Source of the DNA: a virus
Reading direction: 5' to 3' (one strand)
DNA: 64,000 nt
Virus record (IMG/VR): IMGVR_UViG_3300046092_000062
Span: 61,866-125,865 of that record
The position numbers and the translations under genes were made by a program. How positions within the stretch are numbered: position 1 is the first letter of the stretch; the number at the start of each line of letters is the position of its first letter. Positions 1 through 14,468 of this stretch are shown piece by piece. The notes under the pieces were generated by a model. The model was not told where the DNA came from. It searched no databases and was given only the letters and a program-made list of their open reading frames with translations.

Positions 1-132
1 TATCCGCACGATGACGAGTCGGGACTAAACCAATTGCACGACGTGGACGATTTGATTGCATTAAAATTAAGCAATAATGATTTAGAGAACATCGCTTACA
101 AAAACGCCGAACGAATTTTTCGGTTAGTATAG
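1..132 (+). CDS. 3' end of an upstream gene (C-terminal fragment; ends ...NAERIFRLV, amidohydrolase-like tail)
   Basis: The frame is open from base 1 to a TAG at 130-132, and the C-terminal motif fits the end of amidohydrolase-type genes. Confidence 0.35.
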   Translation, partial: YPHDDESGLNQLHDVDDLIALKLSNNDLENIAYKNAERIFRLV

Positions 133-138
133 AATTGT

Positions 139-212
139 TGGGGATTAGTTAAACGGTATAACTACGGATTTTGATTCCGTCATTAGTGGTTCGATTCCAC
201 TATCCTCTGCCA
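139..212 (+). tRNA. tRNA-Gln(TTG)
   Basis: Cloverleaf folded by hand. The anticodon arm ACGGA-TTTTGAT-TCCGT matches E. coli tRNA-Gln and the T arm is AGTGG-TTCGATT-CCACT. Positions 1 and 72 form a U-U mismatch and the CCA end is encoded. Confidence 0.65.
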
Positions 213-384
213 AAATTTCATATCCTGTACGAACGGCAGCTCTTGCTTTTCAGGATAATCTCGTGTAAAATGTTTAACACAAGAGAAGCTCTTAGCATCG
301 GAATAAGTTCCGTTGCCGAGTTTAAGTAATTCATCGAATCCAGGATTGGGTTTGCTCATACTGTATTTAACACAAGGAAACAAA

Positions 385-888
385 ATGCCCTGGATCCAAA
401 ACGTAGCACGTAGCGATGTCACTAAAGGGTTTCACATCAACCCCGGTGATAACGCTATGTTGATTCAAATCGTTGACTGCGGCAGCGAATTTCCTACTCC
501 CCTTTACAAGTTTAAAGAAGCTCATCAATTTGAGTTTTTAGATGTAGAGGAAAAGGACTACGTTCTTGAAGAAGAAATGAAGTGCAGTCACGAACAAGCC
601 GCAGAGCTAGTTCGTTTGTTGCAACATGCACTAGAGAATCGCATGAACGTTATTGTTCATTGCCATGCTGGTGTTTGCCGCAGCGGTGCAGTATGTGAAG
701 TTGGAGTCATGCTTGGCTTTGATGACACTGAAGCATTTCGTGCTCCTAACTTGCTAGTCAAGCATCGCATGATGAAGCAGCTGGGTTGGACGTATGATGA
801 GAACGAAGAGCCAACGATCAATGGTCAACCATATCAATACAGCGCAGGCGGGATCATTTTACCCCCAAGTCACGAAGGTGATATTTAA
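385..888 (+). CDS. protein-tyrosine / dual-specificity phosphatase (CX5R P-loop HCHAGVCRSG)
   Basis: The P-loop signature sits in ORF 313..888. The start was moved to the ATG at 385, which has an AAGGA ribosome-binding site, because position 313 is a TTG inside the preceding intergenic region. Confidence 0.65.
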   Translation: MPWIQNVARSDVTKGFHINPGDNAMLIQIVDCGSEFPTPLYKFKEAHQFEFLDVEEKDYVLEEEMKCSHEQAAELVRLLQHALENRMNVIVHCHAGVCRSGAVCEVGVMLGFDDTEAFRAPNLLVKHRMMKQLGWTYDENEEPTINGQPYQYSAGGIILPPSHEGDI

Positions 889-1229
889 TGCACAAAATCT
901 ACGTTGATGTTCCGTACGAGTACAACTATGTGTACCGAGTTGATCATGATGAGTCCACTGGTCCAGAAGTGCTAGCAAGGGACTTTGGGGTAAAGTTTGC
1001 GTTTATTTGCAACGCTGCTCAGAGATTCAGCAACCCCGAAGGACTTGGAGCAGTGGGCAATACAGGTGATGCTCACGTGGTATGGCTTGAGTCGGAGAAA
1101 GACGAATTGTTCTTTCTAATCAAGTCCGGATTTACCAAGTTAAATAAAGATGTAGTTGAACTATTCTTGAAAGCAAGATTGGAAGCTATGCGATTAAAAG
1201 AGAGGAATGATTATGAAACGTGTAATTGA
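888..1229 (+). CDS. hypothetical protein
   Basis: ORF track entry. Its ATG overlaps the upstream stop (TAATG). Confidence 0.5.
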   Translation: MHKIYVDVPYEYNYVYRVDHDESTGPEVLARDFGVKFAFICNAAQRFSNPEGLGAVGNTGDAHVVWLESEKDELFFLIKSGFTKLNKDVVELFLKARLEAMRLKERNDYETCN

Positions 1230-1884
1230 GGTCCGTGCCGCAGAAGGTGGCGAAGACAGTAAACTATTTGTAAAAGACTTGGCACAAGCCTACATTAAAT
1301 TTGCACACAGCAAAGGCTGAACTAGCCGCCTGATAAATGAGTATCTTGGCGAAGTTCATATCTTAGTCGAGGGTGCTGATTTATCTGGCTTATACAACGA
1401 GCCAGGTGGACACCGAATACAGCGTGTACCACCAACAGAGCGAAAAGGACGAGTACATACCAGTACTGTTACTGTCGCTGTTGTTGATCCAAGTGTGCCG
1501 ACCACTACCATAAAAGAATCTGATTTGCGGATTGAATGGTACAGCGGAACAGGCGCAGGAGGACAACACCGTAACAAGCACCAAAACAGTGCCCGCGTTA
1601 CGCACATACCTAGTGGCACAGTAGTAACAGCACAGTGTCGCAGTAGGGAAAATAGTTTGGCAGAAGCTATGCAAACTATTCGAGAAAGAGTTGACAAGAT
1701 AACAAAAGACTGTTATAATAACAACTTAGCAAGCAACAGAAAGCAACAAGTTGGTTCAGGGATGCGAGGAGACAAAATTCGCACATACCGCTTTCAGGAC
1801 GATACAGTTAAAGATCACGTAAGTGACAAGACTGCAAGCGTTAAGAAAGTGTTAGCCGGCAACTTTGACTTACTTTGGAATTAA
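1213..1884 (+). CDS. class-I release-factor-like protein (domains 2-4 only; PxT = PPT and GGQ motifs) with an in-frame TGA at 1318..1320
   Basis: An ATG at 1213 has a GAGGAA ribosome-binding site. The reading frame is continuous through to 1884 except for one TGA. The residues after the TGA (GGHRIQRVPPTERKGRVHTS...SGTGAGGQHRNK) align to RF1 domain 3. The TGA sits where RF1 has a conserved Trp (compare ...AEARRWRVEI). Confidence 0.55.
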
Positions 1885-1984
1885 AAAGGAAAATTGACAT
1901 GAAACGTTCAGGTAAACGATAGTGTCATCCTAGACCCCCGTATGGTCCTGGATGGCACGTAAAAGAAAAATATTTACGATCCAT

Positions 1985-2059
1985 CCACAGCAAACTTTGC
2001 TGGCGAAGTACCCGGCTCTTACCCGGACTAACAGAGTTCGATTCTCTGGCTGTGGACCA
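1985..2059 (+). tRNA. tRNA-Lys(CTT) (tentative anticodon)
   Basis: A 7-bp acceptor stem CCACAGC/GCTGTGG, the T arm CAGAG-TTCGATT-CTCTG, anticodon loop CTCTTAC, and an encoded CCA end. The anticodon stem has one mismatch. Confidence 0.5.
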
Positions 2060-2062
2060 TAT

Positions 2063-2137
2063 GGGGGTATAACTTAGCGGCTAAAGTATCTGGCTTTTAA
2101 CCAGAGAACCAGAGTTCGATTCTCTGTGCCCCTACCA
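2063..2137 (+). tRNA. tRNA-Lys(TTT)
   Basis: Acceptor stem GGGGGTA/TGCCCCT, D stem ACTT/AAGT, anticodon arm TCTGG-CTTTTAA-CCAGA, T arm CAGAG-TTCGATT-CTCTG, and an encoded CCA end. Confidence 0.75.
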
Positions 2138-2143
2138 TATCAA

Positions 2144-2256
2144 AGTACGCTAGTGCATTATAGTGAATCAGGTCGCTCCTGTGGAAGCTAAAACTGCATC
2201 AATTGCCCTGGAGGGAAAGGTCGACGGCTGCGGTTCGATTCCGTAGCGTACTTTGA
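2144..2256 (+). ncRNA. tRNA-like, 113-nt element bracketed by a perfect 18-bp inverted repeat; carries a canonical T arm but is too long for a tRNA
   Basis: CCATATCAAAGTACGCTA at 2138-2155 is the exact reverse complement of TAGCGTACTTTGATATGG at 2245-2262. The interior contains TGCGG-TTCGATT-CCGTA. No standard D arm or anticodon arm could be folded. Confidence 0.3.
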
Positions 2257-2269
2257 TATGGTAAGGCAT

Positions 2270-2347
2270 GGAAGTATAGCTCAGTTGGTTTAGAGCATCG
2301 GACTTTTAATCCGAGGGTCCTGGGTTCGAGCCCCAGTGCTTCTACCA
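2270..2347 (+). tRNA. tRNA-Lys(TTT)
   Basis: Acceptor stem GGAAGTA/TGCTTCT (with G-U pairs), D arm GCTCAGTTGGTTTAGAGC, anticodon arm TCGGA-CTTTTAA-TCCGA, T arm CTGGG-TTCGAGC-CCCAG, and an encoded CCA end. Confidence 0.75.
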
Positions 2348-2416
2348 TATGCAAACACATTTTTCTGAACGCCAGTCATTTGCCGTGCAGAGTAGGTCAA
2401 GTGTGTTTACATATGG
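2346..2416 (+). ncRNA. hairpin-bracketed small RNA element (not tRNA-like inside)
   Basis: ATATGCAAACACAT ... GTGTGTTTACATAT form an imperfect 14-bp inverted repeat around about 40 nt. The same bracket reappears at 13012-13112. Confidence 0.3.
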
Positions 2417-2548
2417 TACTAGAAGGAGTAATTAACCTTCGCCATAATCGGGAGTCATGACCCGATGAACTCGTAGTCTTCTAATTGGTTAGGAAAGGCC
2501 CGTTATGGGGCTTAATGTTGGTTCGAGCCCAACCTACAATGAGTTCGC

Positions 2549-2637
2549 ATATATAAACATACTAGTCGGCGACTAAGCGTATTGCACGGTCTCTACGGAG
2601 TGAAAGGGTCAGTGGTTCGATTCCACATAGTGTGTTT
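2549..2637 (+). ncRNA. possible long-variable-arm tRNA (type II) or degenerate tRNA; isotype unresolved
   Basis: The acceptor stem CATACTA/TAGTGTG pairs fully and the T arm is AGTGG-TTCGATT-CCACA. The D arm and anticodon arm could not be folded convincingly. Confidence 0.3.
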
Positions 2638-2992
2638 TTATATGGTGCAAAAGTAATAAAGGGACTTGGGTGCCCAGAGTTTTGAAAACTCACACACTAT
2701 AGTCGGCATGTGTGTCCACCGTGCATTAACCGACGTTTAAATAAAGCTAGGGCAAGCGCCAGTTAACGGTGGAGCCTATATAGAAGTATTCTTGGCATAA
2801 GTCAAAGCGGGAGAAGAAGCCTAGTATCTGCAGATGCGAAAGTTTCAGAGCTTGACTCCTCCTATGCTTGCATTTGAGAGTGCTTCTATATGGTATAGTG
2901 TAATGCGAATGCACGGGATCGCCACATAAGCCTTTGACGAGCGGTGGAACAAGGTTCAGGTGTGGTAGGAACCCACAATGCCATTTAAATTT

Positions 2993-3068
2993 GCCTTTAT
3001 AGCTCAGTTGGTAGAGCAGAGGATTGAAAATCCTTGTGTCACTGGTTCGAATCCGGTTAGAGGCACCA
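2993..3068 (+). tRNA. tRNA-Phe(GAA)
   Basis: The sequence is close to E. coli tRNA-Phe. It has acceptor stem GCCTTTA/TAGAGGC, D arm GCTCAGTTGGTAGAGC, anticodon arm GAGGA-TTGAAAA-TCCTT, T arm CTGGTTCGAATCCGG, and an encoded CCA end. Confidence 0.85.
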
Positions 3069-3083
3069 AATTATAGGAGTAGT

Positions 3084-4307
3084 ATGGCAAAGTTTTCGGA
3101 GAAGTTCTTCTGTCCTGCACCGTGGACAATGTTATACTATCATGCCAACTCTCCTAGTCCGTGCCACATGATTAAAAATTTAGAGATGGAAGCGACCCCA
3201 TCTGAATATTTTAATAGCGAATGGCTTAAGAATATAAAACAAGAAATGCAGCAAGGGATTGTTCCTGCTGCATGTTCTGGTTGTAAAGAGCGTGAGAGTC
3301 ATGGACTAAAAAGCACACGCGGCGCTATTTGGAATTACTATAATGTAGGACCTGAGCCCGAGTACGAAGATCAATGGTTCGCAAACAAGTTTACCGCAGA
3401 CAGCCCAACCGTTCCAAAAAGAATTGAGCTTAGGTTTAGTAATCTATGTAATATGAAATGCAGGATGTGCGACGAAACATCTAGTTCCAGCTTTGCAGCA
3501 GAAAAAATTGAACATAAGATTAAACCAGACAAAAACGGAAGTCATCTTGAGCATAGCGTGATACCCATCACAAAGATAGAAAACAATTCAATTGATGGCC
3601 TCATGGATACTGCCTTTCTAGCGTCAGTTCGAAAGGTATGTTTAACCGGTGGCGAACCATTTTTAATAAAAGAATATTACAGCTATCTAGATTACTTAAT
3701 AGACAACGGTTTTAACAAAACACTAGACGTAGAATTGTTTACAAATTGCAGTGTATATAATCCATTGTTTATTGATCGACTTAGTAAATTTAAAACAGTT
3801 CAAATGGTGATGAGCATCGATGCTGTGGGCAAAGCGGCTGAATATATTCGTAGTGGAACCGATTGGCCTAAAGTGGAAGCCAATGTGCTTCGACTAAATC
3901 AACTAGCAGCTCCATTTAAAATGGAAGTTACAACTGCCATATCTGCATACAGCCTAATGGACTTTGCAGAGACTGCACGATTTCTAATGAGGTTGTACAC
4001 CGAAAACAACACCATTGGCGTAAAATGTTACAACGTAACTTCGCCTCCGGGTATGCACTTTAATAATCTGCCTAAGCCGTTGAGAATACAAGCAATAGAT
4101 CAAATCGACAAGGCAGTAGAGATTCTAACAGCACCAAACTATTTGGTACTAGTTACAGAGTTGTTAAACGTGAAACACGCATTGACTACTTCGTCCCCGG
4201 ATACACCACTGGCATTCTTTGACTATACTAAGAAGTACGACACCATTAGGGGAGAGTCGTTTGCGGAAGTGTTTTTAACATCTCCTGACAGCACAGATTA
4301 CTTGTAA
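3084..4307 (+). CDS. radical SAM enzyme (CNMKCRMC = CX3CX2C) with an N-terminal Cys-rich domain; paralog of 49128..50156
   Basis: ORF 3024..4307 trimmed to the ATG at 3084, which follows an AGGAG ribosome-binding site and lies after tRNA-Phe. The radical-SAM cysteine triad is present. Confidence 0.7.
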   Translation: MAKFSEKFFCPAPWTMLYYHANSPSPCHMIKNLEMEATPSEYFNSEWLKNIKQEMQQGIVPAACSGCKERESHGLKSTRGAIWNYYNVGPEPEYEDQWFANKFTADSPTVPKRIELRFSNLCNMKCRMCDETSSSSFAAEKIEHKIKPDKNGSHLEHSVIPITKIENNSIDGLMDTAFLASVRKVCLTGGEPFLIKEYYSYLDYLIDNGFNKTLDVELFTNCSVYNPLFIDRLSKFKTVQMVMSIDAVGKAAEYIRSGTDWPKVEANVLRLNQLAAPFKMEVTTAISAYSLMDFAETARFLMRLYTENNTIGVKCYNVTSPPGMHFNNLPKPLRIQAIDQIDKAVEILTAPNYLVLVTELLNVKHALTTSSPDTPLAFFDYTKKYDTIRGESFAEVFLTSPDSTDYL

Positions 4308-5296
4308 AGGTTGGCCACATACACAATATGGTCAATGGGGTGGTCTTTCCAATTATACACTGCTGGTAGATGATGTTTAATCTCCATAATTACAAACGCT
4401 TGCAGCAATGAATGGCTTCGTAGAAAATCTGTTAACTTATAGGTTTTTCTAAATTGTTCAATTTCGCTAAACCATTGTAAGTTTTGCTGGGCATCAATGT
4501 ATGTTTGGTGGAATGACTTTGTGTAACTAGTATCAAATGTGCCAGCCCCGATAGAGTTAACAAAATTGTCGAACCAAGTGGGAAATCGATCGCTAACAAT
4601 ATCAGTTAACGAGATCTGGTACAGGTGATCTATTCGGTCTTTGGGTAGTACATAGGTTTGTTCGTTAACTTCATGCCCGTTGTGTTGATTCCGTACACGA
4701 TACCATTCAGAATACCATTCCAGCCCGCCGGATAACTTATCATAGTCGATGCCTCTAAGGAATGGGAAAATTTCGTAATACGATTCAACAAACAAATTCC
4801 GCGCCTCAATAGAGTCTTGACAATTAAAACTATCAAACCCAAACCGACGTTCGACTATTTGATTCGCCTTAAAGAAAACAGGCCATTTGGTGATAGTATT
4901 TAATGATCCGTATTTGCGATCGTCGAGTACATCGTTATCATTGATAATAACAATAACTGGATCGGGATCACTTAATAGTATCGATCGGATAGCCATGTCC
5001 GGTCTTGACACATCAAAAGATGTTGGTATGTCATGACAGTTGAGTAGAAAAACTTTTTTCTCTTTTGGTTGATTGTATGTCATCCAAATTAGATGTTGAT
5101 GAATACTTTGATGAGTTGGTATTCTTGCGTGTAAGTGCGCAGTACCTATTCCTCCAAACATCTCACTAACTTCTTTGTTTACTGGATCATCAACGGTTTG
5201 ACTAGCTGAGTCAATTTCACTTTTGTTGATGCACCAATGTATATAACTACCCGACGACCCCGGCGGGTATAATAGATAAATGTTCTTTGACAGCAT
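4298..5296 (-). CDS. hypothetical protein with P-loop-like YPPGSSGSY motif (paralog family with 6302..7141 and 36984..37766; possibly sulfotransferase-like)
   Basis: Minus-strand ORF 4298..5440 trimmed to the Met at 5296, because its N-terminal extension is antisense to tRNA-Thr. Confidence 0.5.
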   Translation of the reverse strand: MLSKNIYLLYPPGSSGSYIHWCINKSEIDSASQTVDDPVNKEVSEMFGGIGTAHLHARIPTHQSIHQHLIWMTYNQPKEKKVFLLNCHDIPTSFDVSRPDMAIRSILLSDPDPVIVIINDNDVLDDRKYGSLNTITKWPVFFKANQIVERRFGFDSFNCQDSIEARNLFVESYYEIFPFLRGIDYDKLSGGLEWYSEWYRVRNQHNGHEVNEQTYVLPKDRIDHLYQISLTDIVSDRFPTWFDNFVNSIGAGTFDTSYTKSFHQTYIDAQQNLQWFSEIEQFRKTYKLTDFLRSHSLLQAFVIMEIKHHLPAVYNWKDHPIDHIVYVANLYK

Positions 5297-5317
5297 GGAA
5301 TATTTATTGAAATAAAT

Positions 5318-5391
5318 GCTCTTATAGGTAAATGGTATATCGGCGCTGTGGTATAGCGCAGTCCTAAGTTCGATTCTTAGTAGGAGCACCA
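5318..5391 (+). tRNA. tRNA-Thr(GGT)
   Basis: Acceptor stem GCTCTTA/TAGGAGC, D arm GGTA-AATGGTA-TATC, anticodon arm GCGCT-GTGGTAT-AGCGC, T arm CTAAG-TTCGATT-CTTAG, and an encoded CCA end. Confidence 0.7.
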
Positions 5392-5406
5392 CGTGATAAG
5401 TATCTA

Positions 5407-6318
5407 ATGCAACATAATTTTTTACCATGTAAATATCCAATTATTTGTGCCCCGATGAATAGAGTGTCGGACGTTAAGCTAGCACTTGCAGTTCATAGAG
5501 CTGGGTGCTTGCCGAGCCTTGTGGTCCACAATCATGATGAATCTGAATTAGCTAACGATGTGGCTAAGATTGTGAACGAAATGAAAGAGTTCACAGAGCT
5601 GTCGGGATCAAGCGATTTTATACTTGCACTTAGATCAGATTTTTTATTAAAAGATACCAAGCTGCTCCCTGCGATGTTAAAGTACAGGCCTGCGTATGTT
5701 GAATTCTTTGACAATATTGATTGGTCTGACATAAAGGTGGTCAACCTTATTAAGCTGCTTAGAACATACAGAATTAAAATAATCTATAAAATACTTGCAC
5801 CTAGAATATTGGGCAAGTTAGTGGAATTTGTTGACGCTATTGACGTTAAGGGCCCTGATGCCGCTGCCCGTGTGAATACCACAACTACTACTAGTTTAGT
5901 AGATCGGATTAAGCAACTGAAATCCGCTAATCCACATTTGCACATTATTGCATCTGGTGGTATGTCATCGCAACAGGATGTGCAGGCATGTATTGACGCT
6001 GGCGCAAGTGCAGTGGCATTGGGCACAGTATTTGCCATGTCAGAAGAGTCGTCGATTTCAGTTGAGACAAAAATGAAAATGATTGAATCAACATTCTCAC
6101 AAGTTGTGAACATTGGCGAAGCCCAACAAAATGCGTTAGTGTTTACAAACGAAAAAGATGTTGACGGCAACCACACTGTGGGACTAGAACTTGGTATAAA
6201 AAGCCCAGTCGCTGGTCATGTGTTTGTGGGGAAAGCAATTGATTCAATTGACTCAATTAAAACAGTGGAAACAATCGTGTCGGAGCTAACTGGGGTAACT
6301 GATGCAAAAACCCGATGA
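5407..6318 (+). CDS. nitronate monooxygenase / FabK-like FMN-dependent TIM-barrel oxidoreductase
   Basis: Motifs PIICAPM and SDVKLALAV..AG, plus IIASGG...GASAVALGTVF, are typical of the NMO/2-nitropropane dioxygenase family. Confidence 0.6.
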   Translation: MQHNFLPCKYPIICAPMNRVSDVKLALAVHRAGCLPSLVVHNHDESELANDVAKIVNEMKEFTELSGSSDFILALRSDFLLKDTKLLPAMLKYRPAYVEFFDNIDWSDIKVVNLIKLLRTYRIKIIYKILAPRILGKLVEFVDAIDVKGPDAAARVNTTTTTSLVDRIKQLKSANPHLHIIASGGMSSQQDVQACIDAGASAVALGTVFAMSEESSISVETKMKMIESTFSQVVNIGEAQQNALVFTNEKDVDGNHTVGLELGIKSPVAGHVFVGKAIDSIDSIKTVETIVSELTGVTDAKTR

Positions 6319-7141
6319 TGTAACTATTTGTTACTTCGGGGGCAGCGGCGGCTTCTTTTGCTTGTACCTTCTTTTGCTTAGTAACCAATACCAATGCTGC
6401 TTCGAAAATGGGTCAGCTGACGCACACGTAACAAAAGTTACGCAATGGGATATACAGAATGTTTCCAATTGGAAAGATAATGAGATATGGCCTAACAACA
6501 GCAACACCAAAGCAGAGAGTTTCGATGTTAGCAAAGTCTTTTTTCTTTGTAACCCATTGCAATTAACGCAAAAGCCCGGAGTGCAAGATGACGTGCTATC
6601 TAAATGTCCAGGAAAGAAAATTCTATTGTACACAGATTTAGAAACACAATGGCATCTAACAAAAACTAAACGTGCCTACTGGTTTCAAAAAGGACAGCAG
6701 CTAAACGGACAAGGACCAAGTTGGCAGACAGCCGAATATCGTGAAGAACAAGTGCTAATATGGTATAATAACATCAGACAGGATAGCTGGCCTCAAATCT
6801 CCAAGGCAGATGATTTTTACAATCTTCCGCAGGAAATACAGGATATTTGTATAACTGACTATAGCATGTGGGAAGTCCTTGACATTGGCAAATTTGACAA
6901 TGATGACTACCGACCCCGTGGAGTAGAGTTTAGGGGAGACATAGTGTACAAGAAAGTAGTGGACATTATGCCTAAGATGGACATAGTGGTTAAGCTACAA
7001 GATTTGATTAAAACACAAGGCCGTGTGTTGTTCGACCAGCTTGGTATTGAGACAAACAAAGACACGCAAAAGTTCATAATCCAGTACCTGTCGTTGCACA
7101 CAGTCGAGCAGCGGAAATTCCTATTAGGCAAGCACATATAA
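6302..7141 (+). CDS. hypothetical protein, CYFGGSGGFF motif (paralog family X)
   Basis: ORF track entry. The N-terminal glycine-rich loop resembles the motifs in 4298..5296 and 36984..37766. Confidence 0.5.
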   Translation: MQKPDDVTICYFGGSGGFFCLYLLLLSNQYQCCFENGSADAHVTKVTQWDIQNVSNWKDNEIWPNNSNTKAESFDVSKVFFLCNPLQLTQKPGVQDDVLSKCPGKKILLYTDLETQWHLTKTKRAYWFQKGQQLNGQGPSWQTAEYREEQVLIWYNNIRQDSWPQISKADDFYNLPQEIQDICITDYSMWEVLDIGKFDNDDYRPRGVEFRGDIVYKKVVDIMPKMDIVVKLQDLIKTQGRVLFDQLGIETNKDTQKFIIQYLSLHTVEQRKFLLGKHI

Positions 7142-7166
7142 TCAATTTGGCAACCAACTCATAATT

Positions 7167-8375
7167 ATGATTAATTTAAAACTAGGATATTACTCATGCA
7201 ACGGAGTCACGTTCGATTCTAAGATTGCTGCATGTGTGTATTCTGTGCAGCACAATAACGCATTAGTTACGTGGACATTCAACGACCGAGAGTTTAATCA
7301 GCACAACTGGACACAAGAACCTGACCTAACACTGGATCAATTGTATGATATTAGATCAAAGCAGCTAAGAGATCAGTACGACTATGTTATATTGAGCTAC
7401 AGCGGCGGCGCCGACAGTCACAATATCCTAATGAGCTTTATTCGTCAAGGCCTCCATATAGACGAGATTGTGGTAAACACAACTGAGAAAGCTAGTGCAA
7501 GATTCACAGAGTTAGATAAAAACAATCTTGACCCCCGCAATGCAGGAGCAGAGCATGTGTTTCAGACGTTGCCTAGACTACGTGAAATTCAGGGATTGAT
7601 CCCTAAAACAAAGATTAGTGTGTTGGATTTGTCGGATCATCTATTTGAGAGTTTTTCAAAAGCCGATGATGCTAGCTGGGTATTAGAAAAGCGCGAAAGC
7701 CTAAACCCAGCTGGAGTAACACGGTTTAATTATCTGCACTTTGATCAATTGCGCAAACAGTTTGATAAAGATAAAAAAATTGCATTAGTGCTAGGAATCG
7801 AAAAGCCCAGGGTGTTTATTAGACACGGACAGTTGGTACTACGGTTTACAGACCGTGCGGCCAACATTGTTACTGTAGCAGAACACGTTAAAGAATACAC
7901 AAATAGCACAGTAGAATTCTTCTACTGGAGTCCAGATGCAGTGCCAGTGGTTATCAAACAAGCGCACACTATCAAGCGATGGCTTGAGGCTAATCCAGAC
8001 AAACAGCATCTCTGGGACGTTGACACACTAACACCGGAGATGGTGAGACTAGTGCATGAGCGAGTGTACAGACCACTGCTATACACTACGTGGGACAACA
8101 GTTGGTGGCAATCAAACAAAGCAGTTAACGATTGGACAAGCGAGTTTGACCAGTGGTTTAAGGATGGGTACAGTGATACTCGTGCTTACCAAGTGTGGGC
8201 AGAGGGTATTGAGTATGTTCGTGAAATTTTGCATCCTTACATAAACACTACTCATCTTGTTAATGGTCAAGCAGACGGCCTTGACATATTTGTTAAAGAG
8301 TACTTAATTGGACCAGTGAAAAATCTTTGTCCAGAATTAAAGAATAAACTGTATAGGCATTTGCAAAATAAATAA
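7167..8375 (+). CDS. PP-loop superfamily ATP pyrophosphatase (SYSGGADS; PAPS-reductase/CysD-like fold)
   Basis: An SGGxDS PP-loop motif lies near the N-terminus. Confidence 0.6.
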   Translation: MINLKLGYYSCNGVTFDSKIAACVYSVQHNNALVTWTFNDREFNQHNWTQEPDLTLDQLYDIRSKQLRDQYDYVILSYSGGADSHNILMSFIRQGLHIDEIVVNTTEKASARFTELDKNNLDPRNAGAEHVFQTLPRLREIQGLIPKTKISVLDLSDHLFESFSKADDASWVLEKRESLNPAGVTRFNYLHFDQLRKQFDKDKKIALVLGIEKPRVFIRHGQLVLRFTDRAANIVTVAEHVKEYTNSTVEFFYWSPDAVPVVIKQAHTIKRWLEANPDKQHLWDVDTLTPEMVRLVHERVYRPLLYTTWDNSWWQSNKAVNDWTSEFDQWFKDGYSDTRAYQVWAEGIEYVREILHPYINTTHLVNGQADGLDIFVKEYLIGPVKNLCPELKNKLYRHLQNK

Positions 8376-8382
8376 CTAGCGT
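8354..8382 (+). promoter_or_regulatory. sigma70-type promoter TTGCAA-17 bp-TATAAT
   Basis: The -35 and -10 hexamers match consensus with a 17-bp spacer. A small ORF and a tRNA cluster lie downstream. Coordinates are approximate to within about 2 bp. Confidence 0.45.
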
Positions 8383-8408
8383 GTATAATACACAGAAGGG
8401 ACGATGCA

Positions 8409-8543
8409 ATGAAGTCAAGAGAGACAATCGAAAAGGCATACGGCAACGTCCCAAAAGAAATTGGGGTCACAGTTGATGTATTTAACTGGGTCCCGGAGTT
8501 TAGAGGTGTTAAGTATTACTGGATTCGTGCAGTAAGATTTTTC
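8409..8543 (+). CDS. small hypothetical protein (44 aa)
   Basis: An ATG with an AAGGGA ribosome-binding site lies between the promoter and tRNA-Ser. The ORF is below the track's size cutoff. Confidence 0.3.
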
Positions 8544-8548
8544 ACCAG

Positions 8549-8639
8549 GTAAGAATACGGAGTGTGGGCAGGCCGGTAATGCAGCACCCTGCTAAGGTGT
8601 AGACTTGTGATGAGCAGGTCATAGGGTTCGATTCCCTAA
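8549..8639 (+). tRNA. tRNA-Ser(GCT)
   Basis: 91 nt long. Acceptor stem GGAGTGT/ACACTCC, anticodon arm GCACC-CTGCTAA-GGTGT, a long variable arm, T arm TAGGG-TTCGATT-CCCTA, and an encoded CCA end. Confidence 0.7.
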
Positions 8640-8657
8640 CACTCCGCCAGTGATAAG

Positions 8658-8733
8658 TAAGTATAATGCGGATGTAGCTCAGCTGGTAGAGCACAACGTT
8701 GCCAACGTCGAGGTCGTCGGTTCGAACCCGATC
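8658..8733 (+). tRNA. tRNA-Gly(GCC)
   Basis: Close to E. coli tRNA-Gly(GCC). Acceptor stem GCGGATG/CATCCGC, anticodon loop TTGCCAA, T arm GTCGG-TTCGAAC-CCGAT, discriminator U followed by CCA. Confidence 0.8.
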
Positions 8734-8738
8734 ATCCG

Positions 8739-8815
8739 CTCCATAAATGGCTCTCTAGTTCCAATTGGCAGAACATCGGATTCCAAATCCGAGTGTTGGG
8801 GGTTCGAATCCCTCG
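8739..8815 (+). tRNA. tRNA-Trp(CCA), D stem GTTC/GAAC, i.e. a U11-A24 pair
   Basis: Acceptor stem GGCTCTC/GGGGGTC, anticodon arm TCGGA-TTCCAAA-TCCGA, T arm GGGGG-TTCGAAT-CCCTC, discriminator G followed by CCA. Confidence 0.8.
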
Positions 8816-8820
8816 GGGGT

Positions 8821-9280
8821 CGCCAATATAATGAAATCAAAATTCTCCGATTCCCAATTACGCACAATCACGAAAGTGGTTACATACCGCGTGATTATCA
8901 CATGTAGTCACATCATCAATGGGTTTATTGTTAGTGGTAGTCTTGCTCTTGGATTGCAAATTGCAGGCCTAGCAGCAGTAATTAACAGTTTGTTATTTTG
9001 GCTACACGAGCGCATGTGGAATAGGCTACAATGGAAACGTCTCCATTTAAACAGTTCTACGTTCGTAGAAACCAATCCTAGAAGCATCAGTAAGATATTA
9101 ACTTGGCGCATTTTCTCAATGTCTAGTAATTTTCTCATCCCTTACTTGATAACTGGATCATGGGGATCAGCAGCGGCATTCCTTGGGATAGCAGTAATAG
9201 TTAACATGGCTCTATACTATCTACATGAACGAGTGTGGAACATAGTTAAGTGGGGTAAACAGGTCAACGGCCTTTGGTGA
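8821..9280 (+). CDS. small membrane protein with an internal tandem duplication (two LxxLHER(M/V)WN repeats)
   Basis: ORF 8765..9280 trimmed to the ATG at 8821, after tRNA-Trp. The protein has two hydrophobic repeats. Confidence 0.5.
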
Positions 9281-9342
9281 AATGGATATCATATCTGTCT
9301 TCGAAACAGATGGTGGGAGTTCGATCCTCTCAAGGCCGACCA
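9268..9342 (+). tRNA. tRNA-Arg(TCG)
   Basis: Acceptor stem CGGCCTT/AAGGCCG, D stem GTGA/TCAT, anticodon arm TCTGT-CTTCGAA-ACAGA, T arm GGGAG-TTCGATC-CTCTC, and an encoded CCA end. The 5' end overlaps the preceding CDS by 13 nt. Confidence 0.6.
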
Positions 9343-9348
9343 AAATAG

Positions 9349-9377
9349 TTGACTTAGTCAACGGCAGTGTGTATAAT
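9349..9377 (+). promoter_or_regulatory. sigma70-type promoter TTGACT-17 bp-TATAAT, with the palindrome GTTGAC-TTA-GTCAAC overlapping the -35 hexamer
   Basis: Consensus -35 and -10 hexamers, with a 7-bp-arm inverted repeat lying across the -35. Confidence 0.45.
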
Positions 9378-9604
9378 ACAAACTGTTCATAAAAGAGTTA
9401 GCCATGAGCAAGGCAGCTTTCTGTTACCAGTGGTAGGCGTAGTATCAATAATCTTGCAATTAGTGGCCTGTGTTTAAGTATCGGGAACCCCCGAGGCAAC
9501 AAAACGATTTTAAAATTGAGAACCGTTTCGAGCCCACAACGTGTGGTCTAGGTAGGCATTCGCAAGATGCTGCTTGATCTAGATCATGGTTGCCCATCTG
9601 ATCA

Positions 9605-10240
9605 ATGGGGACCAAGTGGTCCGCGGTTGAAAAACAGAATTACATGGCTAACCCTTTTATGAATACATTAACGTTTCAGACCCCGGTACGTATAGTTAAT
9701 AACTGGGATAAAACCACACAAGTAGCAAAGCACTGCATCGATCTAGTAAAGAGTCAATCGGCCAGTATCACTAGGGAATACAAGTACAGCGATTACGGAT
9801 ATCACTATGAACTAGGATCAACTGGCACAGTTAGTCACATCACTAACGGTAGTGCAGAATGGTATTCAGTGACTGGTAAGCTAATAGAATCTACCATGCG
9901 CTTTTTGCCGCTAATGCTAGATGACCTAGCAGACCTTGACCCTACGTTTGCTAGCATTAACTACATGGTGGGCAATGGCGCAGAGCATAGGGATCACGAA
10001 AGTCAGCAAACTGGGTTCAATTATTTTTTTGCTGATTGTGACAGCACTACCTACGCAAGAAACGCAGACATCTGCGAATCCTATCCTAGCGTAAAAGACA
10101 CAGGGTGGATCCTTGATATCCAACAACTACACAGCATCTCAAATACAAACGAACGCATTTGGTTTAACCTTAGATTTGGTAAACCCTTTGCATATTGCAG
10201 AGATTGGTTTGCAGATCATTTGGTATTAACTTATGAATAA
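9605..10240 (+). CDS. hypothetical protein
   Basis: ORF track entry. Confidence 0.5.
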   Translation: MGTKWSAVEKQNYMANPFMNTLTFQTPVRIVNNWDKTTQVAKHCIDLVKSQSASITREYKYSDYGYHYELGSTGTVSHITNGSAEWYSVTGKLIESTMRFLPLMLDDLADLDPTFASINYMVGNGAEHRDHESQQTGFNYFFADCDSTTYARNADICESYPSVKDTGWILDIQQLHSISNTNERIWFNLRFGKPFAYCRDWFADHLVLTYE

Positions 10241-11408
10241 AATTATCTCAATTGAGCCTGCAATCGATCCAGTCAATCGTCCTACATTTTTGTTGGACTG
10301 GGAACTAACAATGAAGTGCAATTTGGATTGCGACTACTGCTCGACTGGCATTGAGTACGGTGGTCACGACAACAGCACAGCACATCCTCCTAAAGACGAA
10401 TGCTTAAAAACCATTGACTTCATGTTTGCTTATGCAGACAAGTACATGCAGCTAAAGCCCAAATGGCAGCGCATGGTGGTTCTCAATGTATACGGCGGCG
10501 AAAGTATATTTCATCCAGACATTGTTGAGATCCTAGAGCAGGTGCGAGCAAGACACACATACGATTGGCCATTGACTGTTACCTGCACAAGTAACGCAGT
10601 GGCTGGTAAGAATCTTTGGGAAAAGGTTGCAAACTTAATTGATGAGTTTACCGTTAGTTTTCACAGCAGTGCATTGCCTAAACAGAGACAGCAAGTACTA
10701 GACAACATACTTTATAATAAGGCTATCGGCAGGCGCCAAAAGGTGGTGTTTGTGATGCACAACGATCCTGTTTTGTGGGATATTAGCCAACAAGCTATTG
10801 AGTTTTGTAAAACACACGATGTTAGGTATGTAGTTAAAGCAAACGACACCCCTACACCTCAGTGGCAGTATAACAAAGAACAGTTTATTTACTTTCAAGA
10901 TTACTACAAGTCACGCACACCAGCTAAGAGTAGGGATGCTCTAACAAAGGCGCTGGATGCAGTGGAAACTGACACAGTTGGCATGGGTAAGGTCGGTCGA
11001 GGTTGTTGTGGTGGCCGAAAGCTATGCACTAACCAAGACCTACAACACCCAACAGCCTTTGTACCACATGCAGATTTCATGGGTTGGAGTTGCAGTGTTA
11101 ACTGGTACTTCTTGTACATTAAACAGATCAATGGCGATGTGTACACAAACAAGGATTGCCGTATGCGCTTTGATGGTACAGTTGGTCCAATTGGTAATTT
11201 GTCAAATGGTAATCTTATACTAGAACAAGTGCAGAAAAACATTGACAACAAAGCCATGCCTGTTATACAATGTGCTAGAACAAGATGTATATGCGGTTAC
11301 TGTGCTCCAAAAGCGCAAGACCCAAAAGATTTTGAAGCTATTATGGATAAACACATAGTTGACAAGCAAGTCAAATTTGTTTATAATAACAGCTTAGATG
11401 ATAAGTAA
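10233..11408 (+). CDS. radical SAM enzyme (CNLDCDYC) with a C-terminal Cys-rich SPASM/twitch-like region
   Basis: The CX3CX2C triad sits near the N-terminus, and several CxxC/CxC clusters lie in the last 150 residues. Confidence 0.7.
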   Translation: MNKIISIEPAIDPVNRPTFLLDWELTMKCNLDCDYCSTGIEYGGHDNSTAHPPKDECLKTIDFMFAYADKYMQLKPKWQRMVVLNVYGGESIFHPDIVEILEQVRARHTYDWPLTVTCTSNAVAGKNLWEKVANLIDEFTVSFHSSALPKQRQQVLDNILYNKAIGRRQKVVFVMHNDPVLWDISQQAIEFCKTHDVRYVVKANDTPTPQWQYNKEQFIYFQDYYKSRTPAKSRDALTKALDAVETDTVGMGKVGRGCCGGRKLCTNQDLQHPTAFVPHADFMGWSCSVNWYFLYIKQINGDVYTNKDCRMRFDGTVGPIGNLSNGNLILEQVQKNIDNKAMPVIQCARTRCICGYCAPKAQDPKDFEAIMDKHIVDKQVKFVYNNSLDDK

Positions 11409-11419
11409 TTTATCACAAT

Positions 11420-11503
11420 GCGTAAGTGGTGGAATGGTATACACTCTGGTCTTAGAAGCCAGCGCCGCGAGGATTGAGAGTTCGAGTCTCTCCTTACGCA
11501 CCA
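11420..11503 (+). tRNA. tRNA-Leu(TAG)
   Basis: 84 nt long. Acceptor stem GCGTAAG/CTTACGC, D stem GTG/CAC, anticodon arm CTGGT-CTTAGAA-GCCAG, a long variable arm, T arm GAGAG-TTCGAGT-CTCTC, and an encoded CCA end. Confidence 0.8.
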
Positions 11504-11533
11504 TTTATTATTTTAAGTTTTTCTAAAAAGTGC

Positions 11534-11562
11534 TTGACACTTAATGAAACTCTTGTTATAAT
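11534..11562 (+). promoter_or_regulatory. sigma70 consensus promoter TTGACA-17 bp-TATAAT (P1 of a tandem pair)
   Basis: Exact consensus hexamers. The spacer contains the AATGAAA motif shared with the other early promoters. Confidence 0.55.
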
Positions 11563-11585
11563 AGATACATGTTAAGAAATTAACA

Positions 11586-11603
11586 AACGTTCTTTAAAAA
11601 TTT
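11586..11603 (+). promoter_or_regulatory. boxA-like antitermination element CGTTCTTTAAAAATTT
   Basis: It resembles the rrn/lambda-nut boxA (GCTCTTTAACAA) and lies about 25 nt downstream of the P1 -10 hexamer. Confidence 0.4.
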
Positions 11604-11899
11604 GTTTTGATGTAAAGTAAGCAGGCGTACCACGCTAATAGGTTGCGTGACTCTTGTCGAAAATTTGGTCCAGATAGAAAGCTGGGAACTCTTGAGTAGT
11701 CTGTAAGCGGCTACTGTGGCGTCTAACACCTATGAGTTAGAAACGATCTGTTCCACGTAGCAATACGCAGGAAGAATGATTGCAATAGAGTAGAGTAACG
11801 CTCTACCGGTTGCATGAGGGTCAACTGAAAGACGCAAGTCTTACCCGTTACCTTGTAACCAGGTAAAAAGAGGCATCAAAATAAATTTCTAAATAACTG

Positions 11900-11928
11900 T
11901 TGACAGCAAATGAAAAGTTTGCTACAAT
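11900..11928 (+). promoter_or_regulatory. sigma70 consensus-like promoter TTGACA-17 bp-TACAAT (P2)
   Basis: The second promoter lies about 370 bp downstream of P1 in the same orientation. Confidence 0.5.
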
Positions 11929-11961
11929 AGCAGCTTAGTTAGACATTGTGCTAACTAACAA

Positions 11962-11976: not shown

Positions 11977-12602
11977 ATACGTATAAGAAGTTCTTATACA
12001 CATGCACATAAATGCGTAGGCCACGCAGATATGGTTGGATTCATAGCTTGGGCTATTGCCCAGGTTGGCAGGTTCGAAACCTGTGAGTGTGCAGTTGTAT
12101 AAGAATTTAGGGCAGTTTAATGTCCTGCAAAGAGTATGGTTCGCCCAGCTTGATGCGAAGAATAACTGTGGTGACACAGCCAAAGGAGGTATGCCTACAT
12201 AACTCCGCTAGCAATAGTTCATTTAGACAAGCCTGCTCACTCCTGTGAGGGAGCGTTCACTCAGCGACGGGTGGATGTAACAGTGACGCAAAGTGCATAG
12301 GGAAGAACGTTTGCTTACAAGCCTGAGATTGCATCAAGGGGAACTTGAGTAGATGGAAAGTAACAGGTGGTGCTGACTTCTATGCGAAACCAACTTTGTT
12401 AATTGGTATGAGAAAGGGTAGTGTATTGGTTCGAAGGGTTGCACCTAAGAGCTCGTATGCAGTTTTAGTGGTTGGTGGACGTAGTAATACGAACATTGGT
12501 CGCAAAAGACGACTGAGTAGCTCGCAAGGCAAAAGGTACGTGGTGTGTTGTATTGTGTATTCCAAAAGATTATGCAGCAACTGAGTCAGCACATCGCAGT
12601 AG

Positions 12603-12674
12603 GTTGATATAGTTCATTGGTAGAACATCTGTCTCTTAAACAGAATGCGGTGGGTTCAATTCCCACTATCATTA
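12603..12674 (+). tRNA. tRNA-Lys(CTT) (CCA end not encoded)
   Basis: D arm GTTC-ATTGGTA-GAAC, anticodon arm TCTGT-CTCTTAA-ACAGA, T arm GTGGG-TTCAATT-CCCAC. The acceptor stem GTTGATA/TATCATT has one U-U mismatch. Confidence 0.55.
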
Positions 12675-13359
12675 CAAAACGCAAAGACTGACTCGGTCGT
12701 ATGTGAAAAGCATCTAATACTTGAGCCGCAAGGTAATCAAGTCAGACGTAACTCGCAAGGTGAAATCTGTTTATGCAGGAAGTTTCGTAGCTACTTAGCG
12801 GTGGTGAATGGCTCTAAAGGTCAACGGGATAGAAAGCGTAGAATAGCATACGGCGACAAGACTACTGCCTGTCTTTAAAAACGGCGATGCTGACAGCAGA
12901 CTAGACTACTATGCAAATAGGGTTTAGTGGAAGTCGGAAGAAAGTAGACTCGCAAGGTTTACAATAATGTCCGAGGTGTTGTTAGGTTAGGATGTATTCT
13001 CAGTCCGCCAACTTATATGCAAACACATTAGTAAAAGTCTGTAAAAGGACGAAGCAACTGACTCTGTAATAGGAGCTGTTTGCTCAGTGTGTTTACATAT
13101 AAGTATGCTTTGATGGTTAAAGTTGGATAGGTAGTGGGTAGCTTGTGAAATCATAGTAGCAAGTCCACAGCAACCCAAACGGTAGAAGCAGCTTATTTGA
13201 AAGCACATTTGTTCCTGAAAGATTTTACGGTTTGGATGGTTCAGCAAATGTGTTTCCAAATAAGAATTTGGTGATTGTGTGGAGCTAAGGCGATTCGCTG
13301 GACTATGAAGCACGACGAGAGCGTTGAACTTGAAATAGGTTCAACCACCAGACTAATAT

Positions 13360-14297: not shown

Positions 14298-14304
14298 ATA
14301 TTGA

Positions 14305-14379: not shown

Positions 14380-14385
14380 ATACAT

Positions 14386-14460: not shown

Positions 14461-14468
14461 AAGGAAAT

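Follow-up and report, generated by a model that had tools for sequence, protein, structure and literature searches.

The gene located at positions 1213 to 1884, plus strand, of the 64-kb stretch of DNA analyzed here (hereafter, the window) encodes what is probably a functional release factor (RF) of a jumbo phage, the expression of which would require programmed, hairpin-stimulated readthrough of an in-frame UGA codon, most plausibly as Trp; we put the probability of this reading at roughly 0.7. Judging from sequence comparisons, the conserved UGA and the hairpin behind it appear to constitute a built-in control device rather than a mutation.

The ATG at 1213 is preceded, at a distance of 7 nt, by a Shine-Dalgarno-like GAGAGG (1200..1205, plus strand), as read from the sequence, in line with the good ribosome-binding site noted in the original prediction. 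The first part of the open reading frame (ORF; 1213..1317, plus strand) comprises 35 codons and covers the start of RF domain 2, including an invariant AEGG(E/D)D motif; the proteins of the relatives likewise start with MKR. Codon 36 is TGA (1318..1320, plus strand), the proposed readthrough (recoding) site, beyond which the second part of the ORF (1321..1884, plus strand) runs for 187 sense codons plus a TAA (1882-1884); the original prediction was accurate as to the 35 residues, the in-frame TGA, and the continuing frame. This second part encodes the remainder of domain 2 (with PPT at codons 73-75), domain 3 (with GGQ), and domain 4, and both motifs expected after the TGA, PPT (in QRVPPTERKGRVHTS) and GGQ, are indeed present in 1213-1884. 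The frame is unchanged across the TGA, with GGC as the P-site codon in the window, and is continuous and collinear with RF1, such that the TGA aligns with the Trp of RF1 from Thermotoga maritima (AERKGW) and Escherichia coli (AEARRW), bearing out its earlier placement on a conserved RF1 Trp position. The first canonical in-frame start codon 3′ of the TGA, GTG 1495, lies downstream of the PPT motif, so that, as previously surmised, there is no sensible downstream start.

The product appears to be a class-I release factor of the RF1 type, 222 aa in length, as first proposed. It matches PF00472 (RF-1 domain, GAGGQH) with 74.4 bits against a cut-off of 35, and the NCBIfam RF1 model (197.7 bits) scores above the RF2 model (121 bits), although the RF1 equivalog cut-off of 400 is not reached; the match covers only positions 107-334 of the 347 in the RF1 model, domain 1 being absent, and the alignment to E. 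coli RF1 covers residues 112-340. Sequence matches in the PDB likewise favor RF1 (149 bits) over RF2 (87 bits). The AF2 model (pLDDT 84.3) has as its best Foldseek match the ribosome-bound T. thermophilus RF1 (TM 0.85, E = 6e-20), with RF2 matches ranking below RF1, and the fold of domains 2 to 4 matches RF1. The RF1-type recognition residues in HRIQRVPPTERKGRVHTS, namely, P73, P74, T75, Q70, H82, and T83, do not vary across the family, with Pro as the middle residue of the tripeptide rather than the usual Ala or Val. The PrfH model (TIGR03072) scores only 42.7 bits, below its cut-off of 166.65, and matches the GGQ domain alone. The lack of domain 1 is the native architecture of the entire family (about 222 aa) and does not set this copy apart, and the earlier description of the gene as truncated is misleading.

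To trace the TGA among relatives, we compared 294 related loci representing 178 distinct sequences from jumbo-phage contigs, metagenomes, and some bacterial assemblies, which span 47-97% amino acid identity and a GC content of 44-70%. Every DNA-level relative carries TGA, not TGG, at this codon, a question that the original prediction had raised: exactly one in-frame stop, TGA at the same Trp codon, is found in 178/178 distinct homologues. This conservation is far beyond chance, the synonymous sites in the rest of the gene being close to saturated (pS ~0.7). The codon before the TGA specifies Gly in 173 of these 178 sequences, and the base after it is A, G, or C, but never T. Purifying selection is evident on either side of the TGA, with a dN/dS of ~0.09 across the family for the 35 codons of the first part, and pN of 0.205 and pS of 0.763 for the second part. 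The same TGA is present in cultured, standard-code Alphaproteobacteria, and cultured carriers of homologues include Gemmobacter caeni DSM 21823, Jiella sp. LLJ827, and Thalassospira xianhensis MCCC 1A02616. Standard gene callers split or mis-code the RF gene, and where database proteins show "W" at the site, the underlying DNA is TGA, the genes having been called with TGA read as Trp. Among deposited phage genomes, a near-identity DNA search returned nothing and all tblastn matches were below 41% identity; thus, no deposited phage genome contains a close homologue of the RF gene. Distant PPT-type homologues, also without domain 1, occur in records of "uncultured phage" 600-735 kb in size (LR745206, LR756504, and LR756501). 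In these, Phe takes the place of the Trp and the in-frame TGAs lie elsewhere in the gene; 40 kb sampled from LR745206 fitted neither code 4 nor code 11 clearly.

Separated from the TGA by a 7-nt spacer (1321..1327, plus strand) is a conserved stem-loop of ~62 nt (1328..1389, plus strand; 5′ arm 1328-1347, 3′ arm 1370-1389), the proposed readthrough stimulator. This hairpin was first seen in folds of individual sequences and then tested as an explicit structure; RNAalifold, run with default settings on three slices of the codon alignment, yielded essentially no structure. In the window, the hairpin has a minimum free energy of -32.6 kcal/mol (z = -4.69). Across the relatives, 89.9% of the cells are paired, compared to 30-50% for slid controls, and 10 of the 18 pairs show compensatory (double) changes, for a total of 52 compensatory cells, a covariation score reached by 0 of 500 shuffles. 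In 79% of 105 genes, no other window folds more stably than the hairpin site, for which the mean ΔG is -24 kcal/mol and the mean z is -3.1 relative to other windows of the same gene; a single long hairpin forms in 91 of these 105 genes. Synonymous diversity reaches its gene-wide minimum in codons 37-45, just 3′ of the TGA (observed/expected 0.37-0.45), and pS falls to 0.44 over the hairpin. The conserved portion is the basal stem, the apical region being variable; divergent members, including the GC-rich bacterial ones, have different hairpins in the same place, and for the most divergent members a shifted register is needed. An Rfam search of window positions 1-16000 at E <= 1 gave no match in the RF gene, with neither SECIS nor a known recoding element detected. 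No terminator-like U-tract was found 3′ of the hairpin, which makes transcription attenuation unlikely. We also noted a small hairpin on the 5′ side, spanning the UGA (1315-1327), but dropped it from consideration because it is specific to the subgroup of the window and not conserved.

A protein search additionally recovered a small bacterial sister clade with TGG at the site. Five codons further on, these genes contain CUU UAG C, a prfB-like site built on a stop codon that RF1 itself reads, at which ribosomes must shift to the +1 frame to make the full-length protein. This arrangement, with continuation in the +1 frame, is found in four independent sequences (L202, L294, L296, and L297), and the PPT motif is invariant in both the UGA-gated and the UAG-frameshift members. 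A metagenome scan seeded with a protein of the frameshift clade recovered only main-clade (TGA) loci, and the tree of the family is a rough neighbor-joining one. The replacement of the UGA gate in the sister clade suggests that it is the stop-codon gate as such that is under selection. The analogy with the autoregulatory UGA of prfB, drawn in the original prediction, is apt and is reinforced by this prfB-like +1 frameshift.

The RF gene is embedded in a module consisting of a tRNA array and a GOLLD RNA. Directly downstream is the first block of the array (1985..3068, plus strand), with three tRNA-Lys and one tRNA-Phe, and tRNA genes lie within 3-4 kb of the RF gene in 135 of 191 related loci. 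Facing the tRNA genes from inside the RF coding sequence is a perfect sigma-70-type promoter sequence (TTGACA-17-TATAAT, with TG; 1691..1719, plus strand). Of 81 relatives, 53 retain this promoter, and synonymous diversity dips a second time at its position. The GOLLD RNA (12540..13006, plus strand; Rfam RF02032, 198.8 bits, E = 3e-55) has a tRNA-Lys embedded at 12603-12675, and the association of RF, tRNA array, and GOLLD recurs in the bacterial locus L296. The window also contains a phage tRNA-Trp with the anticodon CCA (8749..8825, plus strand), a candidate near-cognate decoder of UGA, and another 14 loci have tRNA-Trp(CCA) in the vicinity of the RF gene. The D-stem of the window tRNA-Trp contains U11-A24, as in the Hirsh UGA suppressor, which is a weak hint at best, given that other phage tRNA-Trp genes vary and that U11-A24 is common in tRNAs.

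Elsewhere in the window, TGA functions as an ordinary stop, as the original prediction maintained: among the 81 genes, 25 terminate with TGA, which in 11 cases overlaps the start of the following gene (ATGA), and the TGA-terminated genes include ORF 888-1229 as well as structural-type genes, such as 50468-52870. Coding density is 88% under code 11 and equal under code 4, and bridged ORF pairs in the window are about as numerous for TAA (21) as for TGA (20). The TGA-bridged pairs at 26696, 33079, and 39224 look like separate neighboring genes, and the window contains no second convincing case of a TGA-bridged gene. Neither a tRNA with the anticodon UCA nor tRNA-Sec was detected in the 64-kb window or in 191 flanks, the genome being probably larger than 240 kb. 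The hint at genome-wide stop-codon recoding in the original prediction is therefore unsupported, TGA being a normal stop in the window and no suppressor tRNA having been found.

These observations bear on several alternative explanations. Since a single transition converts TGG to TGA, a lone in-frame stop at a Trp codon is what a recent nonsense mutation that inactivated the gene would leave behind, and a very recent TGG-to-TGA change was one of the two possibilities originally considered. However, the TGA is shared by 178/178 distinct homologues down to 47% identity, strong purifying selection acts on either side of it, the gene contains no other stops or frameshifts, and the covarying 3′ hairpin is conserved; the universal TGA and the hairpin refute such a mutation, leaving a pseudogene with next to no credibility, and support the other possibility, programmed UGA readthrough. 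A wider code switch, with an opal suppressor tRNA or other TGA-to-Trp recoding elsewhere making the RF gene one of several TGA-containing late genes, would be in keeping with the RF1 genes of TGA-recoded phages (bioRxiv 10.1101/2021.08.26.457843), with the distant PPT-type homologues of the 600-735 kb phages that carry in-frame TGAs elsewhere, and with the window amounting to 64 kb of a genome that probably exceeds 240 kb. It is nevertheless unlikely in view of the 25 TGA-terminated genes with their 11 ATGA overlaps, the lack of another convincing TGA-bridged gene, the identical coding density under codes 11 and 4, the absence of tRNA(UCA) from the window and 191 flanks, and the presence of the same TGA in cultured standard-code Alphaproteobacteria; moreover, a gene-specific hairpin would be needless. 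A UGA with a conserved hairpin close behind is also the arrangement of a bacterial SECIS, in which case the UGA would encode selenocysteine. This we regard as highly improbable, the homologous RF1 residue being Trp rather than Cys, the basal stem rather than the apical region being conserved, the region having no Rfam match, tRNA-Sec being absent from the window and flanks, and the sister clade having TGG at the site.

The gene could also function without readthrough, either as a split protein, assembled from the 35-aa peptide and a C-terminal fragment with an initiation site of its own, or with the leader and hairpin acting only as a translational or transcriptional attenuator. Gene callers do place downstream starts in some relatives (for instance, P0077 and P0078), but most members, that of the window among them, lack an ATG, GTG, or TTG close to the TGA, initiation at the first start in the window (1495) would remove the PPT motif, one uninterrupted frame matches RF1 collinearly on both sides of the TGA, and no terminator-like U-tract follows the hairpin, all of which makes this a very unlikely scenario. 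A different question is whether the PPT-type factor itself reads UGA in addition to UAA and UAG, so that the UGA would sense the abundance of the factor directly, as in prfB. The gates of the family are either UGA (readthrough) or UAG (CUU UAG C) while the PPT motif is invariant, the middle Pro is the residue found in the SPF motif of RF2, and a self-contained tRNA-array module would be well served by one factor for all three stops. Direct autoregulation is doubtful all the same, considering that the other recognition residues (Q70, H82, T83, P73, and T75) are RF1-like, that both profile scores and the fold favor RF1, and that, under the tripeptide rule attributed to Ito et al. 2000, P..T reportedly specifies UAA and UAG only. 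A bolder extension, which we entertain as a tentative possibility of low probability, is an omnipotent bacterial-type RF (UAA, UAG, and UGA), with both gates of the family serving as direct sensors of its activity and the tRNA array, GOLLD, and RF forming a mobile, self-regulating back-up translation kit. If so, phages and genomic islands would deploy this kit upon damage to, or depletion of, host tRNAs or termination factors.

Returning to hairpin-stimulated readthrough, the favored reading, we propose that, with the UGA in the ribosomal A site, the hairpin, which starts 7 nt downstream, would sit at the mRNA entrance. Together with the Gly codon in the P site and the non-U base after the stop, it might weaken RF2-mediated termination, and tRNA-Trp (anticodon CCA), of either host or phage origin, would then insert Trp at the UGA, as homology with RF1 implies. 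Termination at the UGA would yield only the 35-aa peptide, and readthrough would give the factor of 222 aa. Since RF2 recognizes UGA and an RF1-type factor does not, the amount of phage factor made would depend on RF2 activity relative to tRNA-Trp and would thus reflect the termination capacity of the cell. By taking over UAA (and UAG) stops, the phage factor might free RF2 and close the gate, a form of indirect negative feedback that we regard as speculative: UGA should lie outside the specificity of an RF1-type factor, and hence the gate would not be a direct autoregulator of the prfB kind. Sequence patterns lead us to infer that the UGA is decoded as Trp, that the hairpin stimulates readthrough, and that the gate has this regulatory role. 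We know of no precedent for hairpin-stimulated readthrough in bacteria or phages except SECIS.

Recoding in RF genes is a textbook case of translational autoregulation that is known only for RF2 (prfB), and our literature search found no published description of a UGA-gated RF1-like gene. Here, a widespread RF1-like family (~180 distinct sequences from jumbo phages, metagenomes, and cultured Alphaproteobacteria) appears to be gated by a stop codon in two ways. If confirmed, the UGA with its covarying 3′ hairpin would be, to our knowledge, the first non-Sec signal for readthrough on bacterial ribosomes that is stimulated by a structure; the other gate is the prfB-like +1 frameshift at UAG. The UGA element is also a compact candidate for a cis-acting tool to tune UGA readthrough in bacteria, the gene ties termination control to the poorly understood tRNA-array/GOLLD modules, and the cultured carriers make the UGA gate directly testable.

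Several known systems share individual features with the phage gene. The mycobacterial tRNA array units carry genes for RF-1, GOLLD RNA, and an HNH endonuclease (PMC5966550, PMC6418233) and, as far as the portions of these reports considered here go, represent the same type of module, with a dense tRNA array, an RF1-like gene, and GOLLD RNA; in those portions, RF-1 is presented as cargo, whereas an in-frame stop, a hairpin, or a frameshift is not mentioned. Phages with alternative genetic codes encode class-I RFs as well, RF1 in the TGA-recoded Jade phages and RF2 in the TAG-recoded Lak and Agate phages, with the RF genes themselves in the standard code within globally recoding genomes that carry suppressor tRNAs (bioRxiv 10.1101/2021.08.26.457843). 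In common with the window gene, these are phage-encoded class-I RFs adjoining tRNA genes, but the window genome uses TGA as a stop, with the in-frame TGA confined to the RF gene. PrfH (RF-H) resembles the phage factor in being an RF paralogue that lacks domain 1 and retains the RF-1/GGQ domain. PrfH is devoid of the RF1 stop-codon recognition motifs, in contrast to the phage protein, which retains them. PrfH is paired with RtcB, and some members of the phage family similarly lie near RNA-repair genes, namely, an Rnl2-type ligase and a kinase (L004), RtcR (L296), and a Thg1-like gene (L199), although no RtcB gene adjoins the RF gene in the window.

A close parallel is prfB, which encodes RF2 through a +1 frameshift at CUU UGA C. 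In both cases, an early in-frame UGA, at codon 26 in prfB and at codon 36 in the phage gene, is bypassed in a class-I RF gene, and the gate responds to termination efficiency, as we propose for the phage gene. The phage gene differs in that it would rely on readthrough, with no frameshift, slippery CUU, or Shine-Dalgarno-like stimulator and with a 3′ hairpin instead, and in that its RF1-type product is not expected to read UGA, so that any feedback would be indirect. A 2025 survey reported no programmed recoding in bacterial prfA (PMC12421855). In mechanistic terms, the phage gene resembles the readthrough signals of eukaryotic viruses, such as the pseudoknot of MuLV gag-pol and the extended stem-loops of alphaviruses and coltiviruses (PMC3159437), with which it shares a conserved in-frame stop, a spacer of ~7-8 nt, a long stem-loop, suppressed synonymous variation, and covariation. 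The setting is different, namely, that of the bacterial ribosome, RF2, and a dsDNA phage. In phage Q-beta, a leaky UGA (coat/A1) is decoded by near-cognate tRNA-Trp, giving rise to a longer protein. Q-beta thus exemplifies a phage gene with UGA readthrough as Trp, the decoding that seems probable for the RF gene. In Q-beta, however, a complete protein is extended into a minor variant, with no known requirement for an RNA structure, whereas in the RF gene the UGA occupies a conserved internal Trp position and the readthrough product would be the sole functional one.

The release factor gene has its ATG at 1213, with GAGAGG upstream of it at 1200-1205, and comprises 35 codons followed by an in-frame TGA at 1318-1320, after which the same frame continues for 187 sense codons to a TAA at 1882-1884, bearing out the layout in the original prediction. 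The earliest canonical in-frame start 3' of the TGA is a GTG at 1495, beyond the PPT motif, and therefore the gene has no sensible downstream initiation site, as had also been anticipated. Pfam recognized the C-terminal half of the PCRF domain and the RF-1 (GGQ) domain in the encoded protein, and NCBIfam ranked prfA (197.7 bits; model positions 107-334 of 347) above prfB (121 bits), with prfH scoring far lower (42.7 bits, GGQ domain only). Alignment to solved structures showed that the protein corresponds to residues 112-340 of Escherichia coli RF1 and that the Trp of AEARRW in E. coli RF1 and of AERKGW in Thermotoga maritima RF1 falls on the exact position of the TGA. An AlphaFold model made from the family alignment (pLDDT 84.3) had ribosome-bound RF1 as its top match (TM 0.85). 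The domain and profile matches, the RF1 alignment and the predicted structure identify the putative product as an RF1-type factor consisting of domains 2-4, in agreement with the initial assignment. The gene had been described as truncated; the absence of domain 1 is instead the native state of the entire ~222-aa family.

Close homologues in the protein database fall into two length classes, of ~222 aa with Trp36 and of 150-187 aa, the latter beginning just after position 36. Inspection of the DNA showed that the short calls are preceded by a 35-codon ORF ending in TGA and that the seemingly uninterrupted calls contain the TGA as well, the latter evidently having been made with TGA read as Trp. 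The two length classes are therefore artefacts of gene calling that stem from a single arrangement. Among 294 loci collected from IMG/VR (three scans), JGI and other metagenomes, and GTDB genomes, all 178 distinct sequences of the gene segment carry a single in-frame stop, always TGA at codon 36. These homologues share 47-97% amino acid identity with the window protein, span a GC content of 44-70%, and reside on contigs that include some of 240-524 kb as well as assemblies of cultured Gemmobacter caeni, Jiella sp. and Thalassospira xianhensis. The codon directly 5' of the TGA encodes Gly in 173 of the 178 sequences, and the base 3' of it is A in 118, G in 39, C in 21 and T in none. The dN/dS ratio is ~0.09 in the N-terminal 35 codons, and in the coding part past the hairpin described below pN is 0.205 versus a pS of 0.763, the latter near saturation, indicating that both halves of the ORF are under selection and most likely translated in this frame. 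The original prediction had left the choice between readthrough and a very recent TGG-to-TGA mutation; the latter is incompatible with the presence of the TGA in every one of the 178 sequences, whereas programmed readthrough of the UGA is strongly supported by the comparative evidence, namely, TGA conservation, selection on both halves and the hairpin.

A change of the genetic code, hinted at in the original prediction, is not supported. Under the standard code, 88% of the window is coding, and reading TGA as sense did not raise this density. TGA terminates 25 of the 81 predicted genes, confirming its use as an ordinary stop, and 11 of these 25, including structural-type genes such as that at 50468-52870, overlap the next start as ATGA. 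TGA-bridged ORF pairs in the window were no more common than TAA-bridged ones, and none was convincing. The 16 tRNAs in the 64-kb window (the genome is probably >240 kb) include tRNA-Trp(CCA) at 8749-8825 and none with anticodon UCA, and neither a UCA anticodon nor tRNA-Sec was found in the flanks of 191 related loci. Given that TGA is a normal stop in the window, with no convincingly bridged genes and no UCA tRNA, the recoding is specific to the release factor gene, with a suppressor tRNA farther away in the genome being improbable.

A sliding-window analysis located the lowest synonymous diversity of the gene (observed/expected 0.37-0.45) at codons 37-45, directly following the TGA, and a further dip at codons 55-59. 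RNAalifold applied to the codon alignment found no structure, whereas individual folding of the sequences yielded, in almost every case, the same long hairpin, which a 7-nt spacer separates from the TGA. Arm sequences vary among divergent members, with GAUAAAU/AUUUAUC in the window, GUGGAU/AUCUAC in L003, GAUAGGU/GACCUAUC in L038 and CAGGACU/GGUCCUG in L082, among other variants. When 71 distinct 96-nt segments were tested against the hairpin as a predefined structure, 89.9% of the cells were paired, versus 30-50% with the 3' partners slid by 1-3 columns; 10 of the 18 pairs showed changes on both sides, and the observed covariation, with 52 compensatory cells, was reached by none of 500 shuffles. 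Stability was assessed in 105 distinct genes for a 66-nt segment starting 6 nt after the TGA: its mean dG of -24 kcal/mol was 3.1 SD below that of other segments of the same gene, it was the most stable of its gene in 79%, and it formed one long hairpin in 91 of the 105. In the window, the hairpin occupies 1328-1389 (MFE -32.6 kcal/mol, z = -4.69). No U-tract lies 3' of it, and no Rfam family matches it. In distant bacterial homologues, a hairpin likewise begins 2-9 nt after the TGA, which counts as weaker evidence in GC-rich DNA.

The TGA is missing only from a small clade of homologues, encoded in bacterial assemblies and on metagenome contigs; a rough neighbor-joining tree placed this clade among TGA-bearing bacterial lineages. 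Its members lie in a Hahella MAG (L202, 3121), in two loci of identical sequence (L294, 687; L295, 1125), on an 809-kb contig (L296, 6027) and in L297 (~6050). TGG occupies the Trp site in all four independent diverged sequences and is followed, five codons on, by NNN CTT TAG CCC, with the remaining protein in the +1 frame. The database proteins P0137, P0148 and P0151 have the same +1-frame N-terminus, seen at the DNA level for P0148 (= L297). Comparison of relatives thus revealed TGA throughout the family proper and TGG solely in this sister clade, where it is accompanied by the frameshift site. The occurrence of two different stop gates at nearly the same place argues that the stop-codon gate itself is the selected feature and that the protein acts in termination; the two gate types also make it conceivable that the factor recognizes UAG as well as UGA.

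The amino acid at codon 36 is almost certainly Trp, because RF1 homologues have Trp and the sister clade TGG at this site, and because the classical near-cognate decoder of bacterial UGA is tRNA-Trp (Q-beta A1, Hirsh suppressor). In E. coli tRNA-Trp, the G24A change of the Hirsh UGA suppressor creates a U11-A24 pair, which is also present in the D-stem of the phage tRNA-Trp(CCA); this pair varies among other phage tRNA-Trp genes near release factor genes and is common among tRNAs, and we give it little weight as a suppressor hint. In the mechanism that we infer, which extends to the identity of the inserted residue, stimulation by the hairpin, readthrough efficiency and regulatory purpose, the hairpin would sit at the ribosomal mRNA entrance when the UGA occupies the A site. 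Structures stimulating readthrough or frameshifting have the same geometry (PMC3159437; PMC7282821). Because the recognition residues are RF1-like (P73, T75, Q70, H82 and T83), the product itself is not expected to recognize UGA. Passage through the gate would then reflect how active RF2 is in relation to tRNA-Trp: a shortage of RF2 would raise the output of phage factor, which would take over UAA and UAG stops, relieving RF2, although we hold this indirect feedback logic with low confidence.

Distant PPT-type homologues lacking domain 1 (35-37% identity) occur in 600-735 kb phages (L192, LR745206.1; L193, LR756504.1; L195, LR756501.1; L196, 20062-20775). Phe occupies the Trp36 site in these proteins, and their genes contain one or two in-frame TGAs located elsewhere. 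Across a 40-kb sample of LR745206, TGA ends only 3 of 59 genes and is rarely internal, so its release factor gene looks enriched in TGA.

The DnaB-like helicase of the window shares 45% identity with its counterparts in jumbo phages PA5oct and Atu_ph07. The release factor gene is flanked by a DSP-type phosphatase-like gene and a 113-aa ORF on one side and by a tRNA array on the other, and tRNAs lie within 3-4 kb of it in 135 of 191 related loci. Inside the phage array is a GOLLD RNA (12540-13006; Rfam RF02032, 198.8 bits, E = 3e-55) with an embedded tRNA-Lys(CTT) at 12603-12675; in L296, the frameshift-type gene likewise lies amid at least 23 tRNA genes, with a GOLLD RNA containing an embedded tRNA (7401-7870, 148.2 bits), an HNH endonuclease, RtcR and an integrase. 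Within the release factor coding sequence, a perfect-consensus sigma-70 promoter (1691-1719; TTGACA, 17 nt, TG-TATAAT; 12/12) is directed toward the tRNA genes that follow; this promoter is retained in 53 of 81 relatives, coincides with a dip in synonymous diversity and fixes an otherwise variable peptide as ..VD......YN... Five tRNA-Lys genes (1985-2347, 12603-12675; anticodons CTT twice, TTT three times) are present in the 64 kb, three of them directly 3' of the release factor gene, a redundancy that recalls the proposal that phage tRNA sets counter anticodon nucleases. RNA-repair and tRNA-processing genes recur near homologues in other loci, including an Rnl2-type RNA ligase with an AAA_33 kinase-like gene (L004, 8545-11009), a Thg1-like tRNA-His guanylyltransferase in G. 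caeni (L199, 4255-5259) and an RNase H-like gene adjoining the homologue in L200 (2364-2837). Two radical-SAM proteins (3024-4307 and 10233-11408) are interspersed with the window tRNA genes, and a radical-SAM gene also lies 3' of the release factor gene in L003.

Arrays of tRNA genes carrying RF-1, or GOLLD with HNH, have been noted before, with no mention of recoding in the array descriptions available from these sources (PMC5966550, PMC6418233). Release factors have been reported in huge phages (PMC7162821), stop-codon-recoded phages carry release factor genes described as standard-code (bioRxiv 10.1101/2021.08.26.457843), and a 2025 survey recorded no programmed recoding in bacterial prfA (PMC12421855). 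Within an incomplete coverage of journals, we found no description of an in-frame UGA with a hairpin in an RF1-like gene, nor of a UAG frameshift in such a gene, although an earlier report of either may exist. A close parallel is with prfB, the RF2 gene with its autoregulatory frameshift: the sister clade shares with it the slippery CUU and the shift to the +1 frame but differs in having UAG, the stop codon of RF1 itself, where the CUU UGA C of prfB has UGA.
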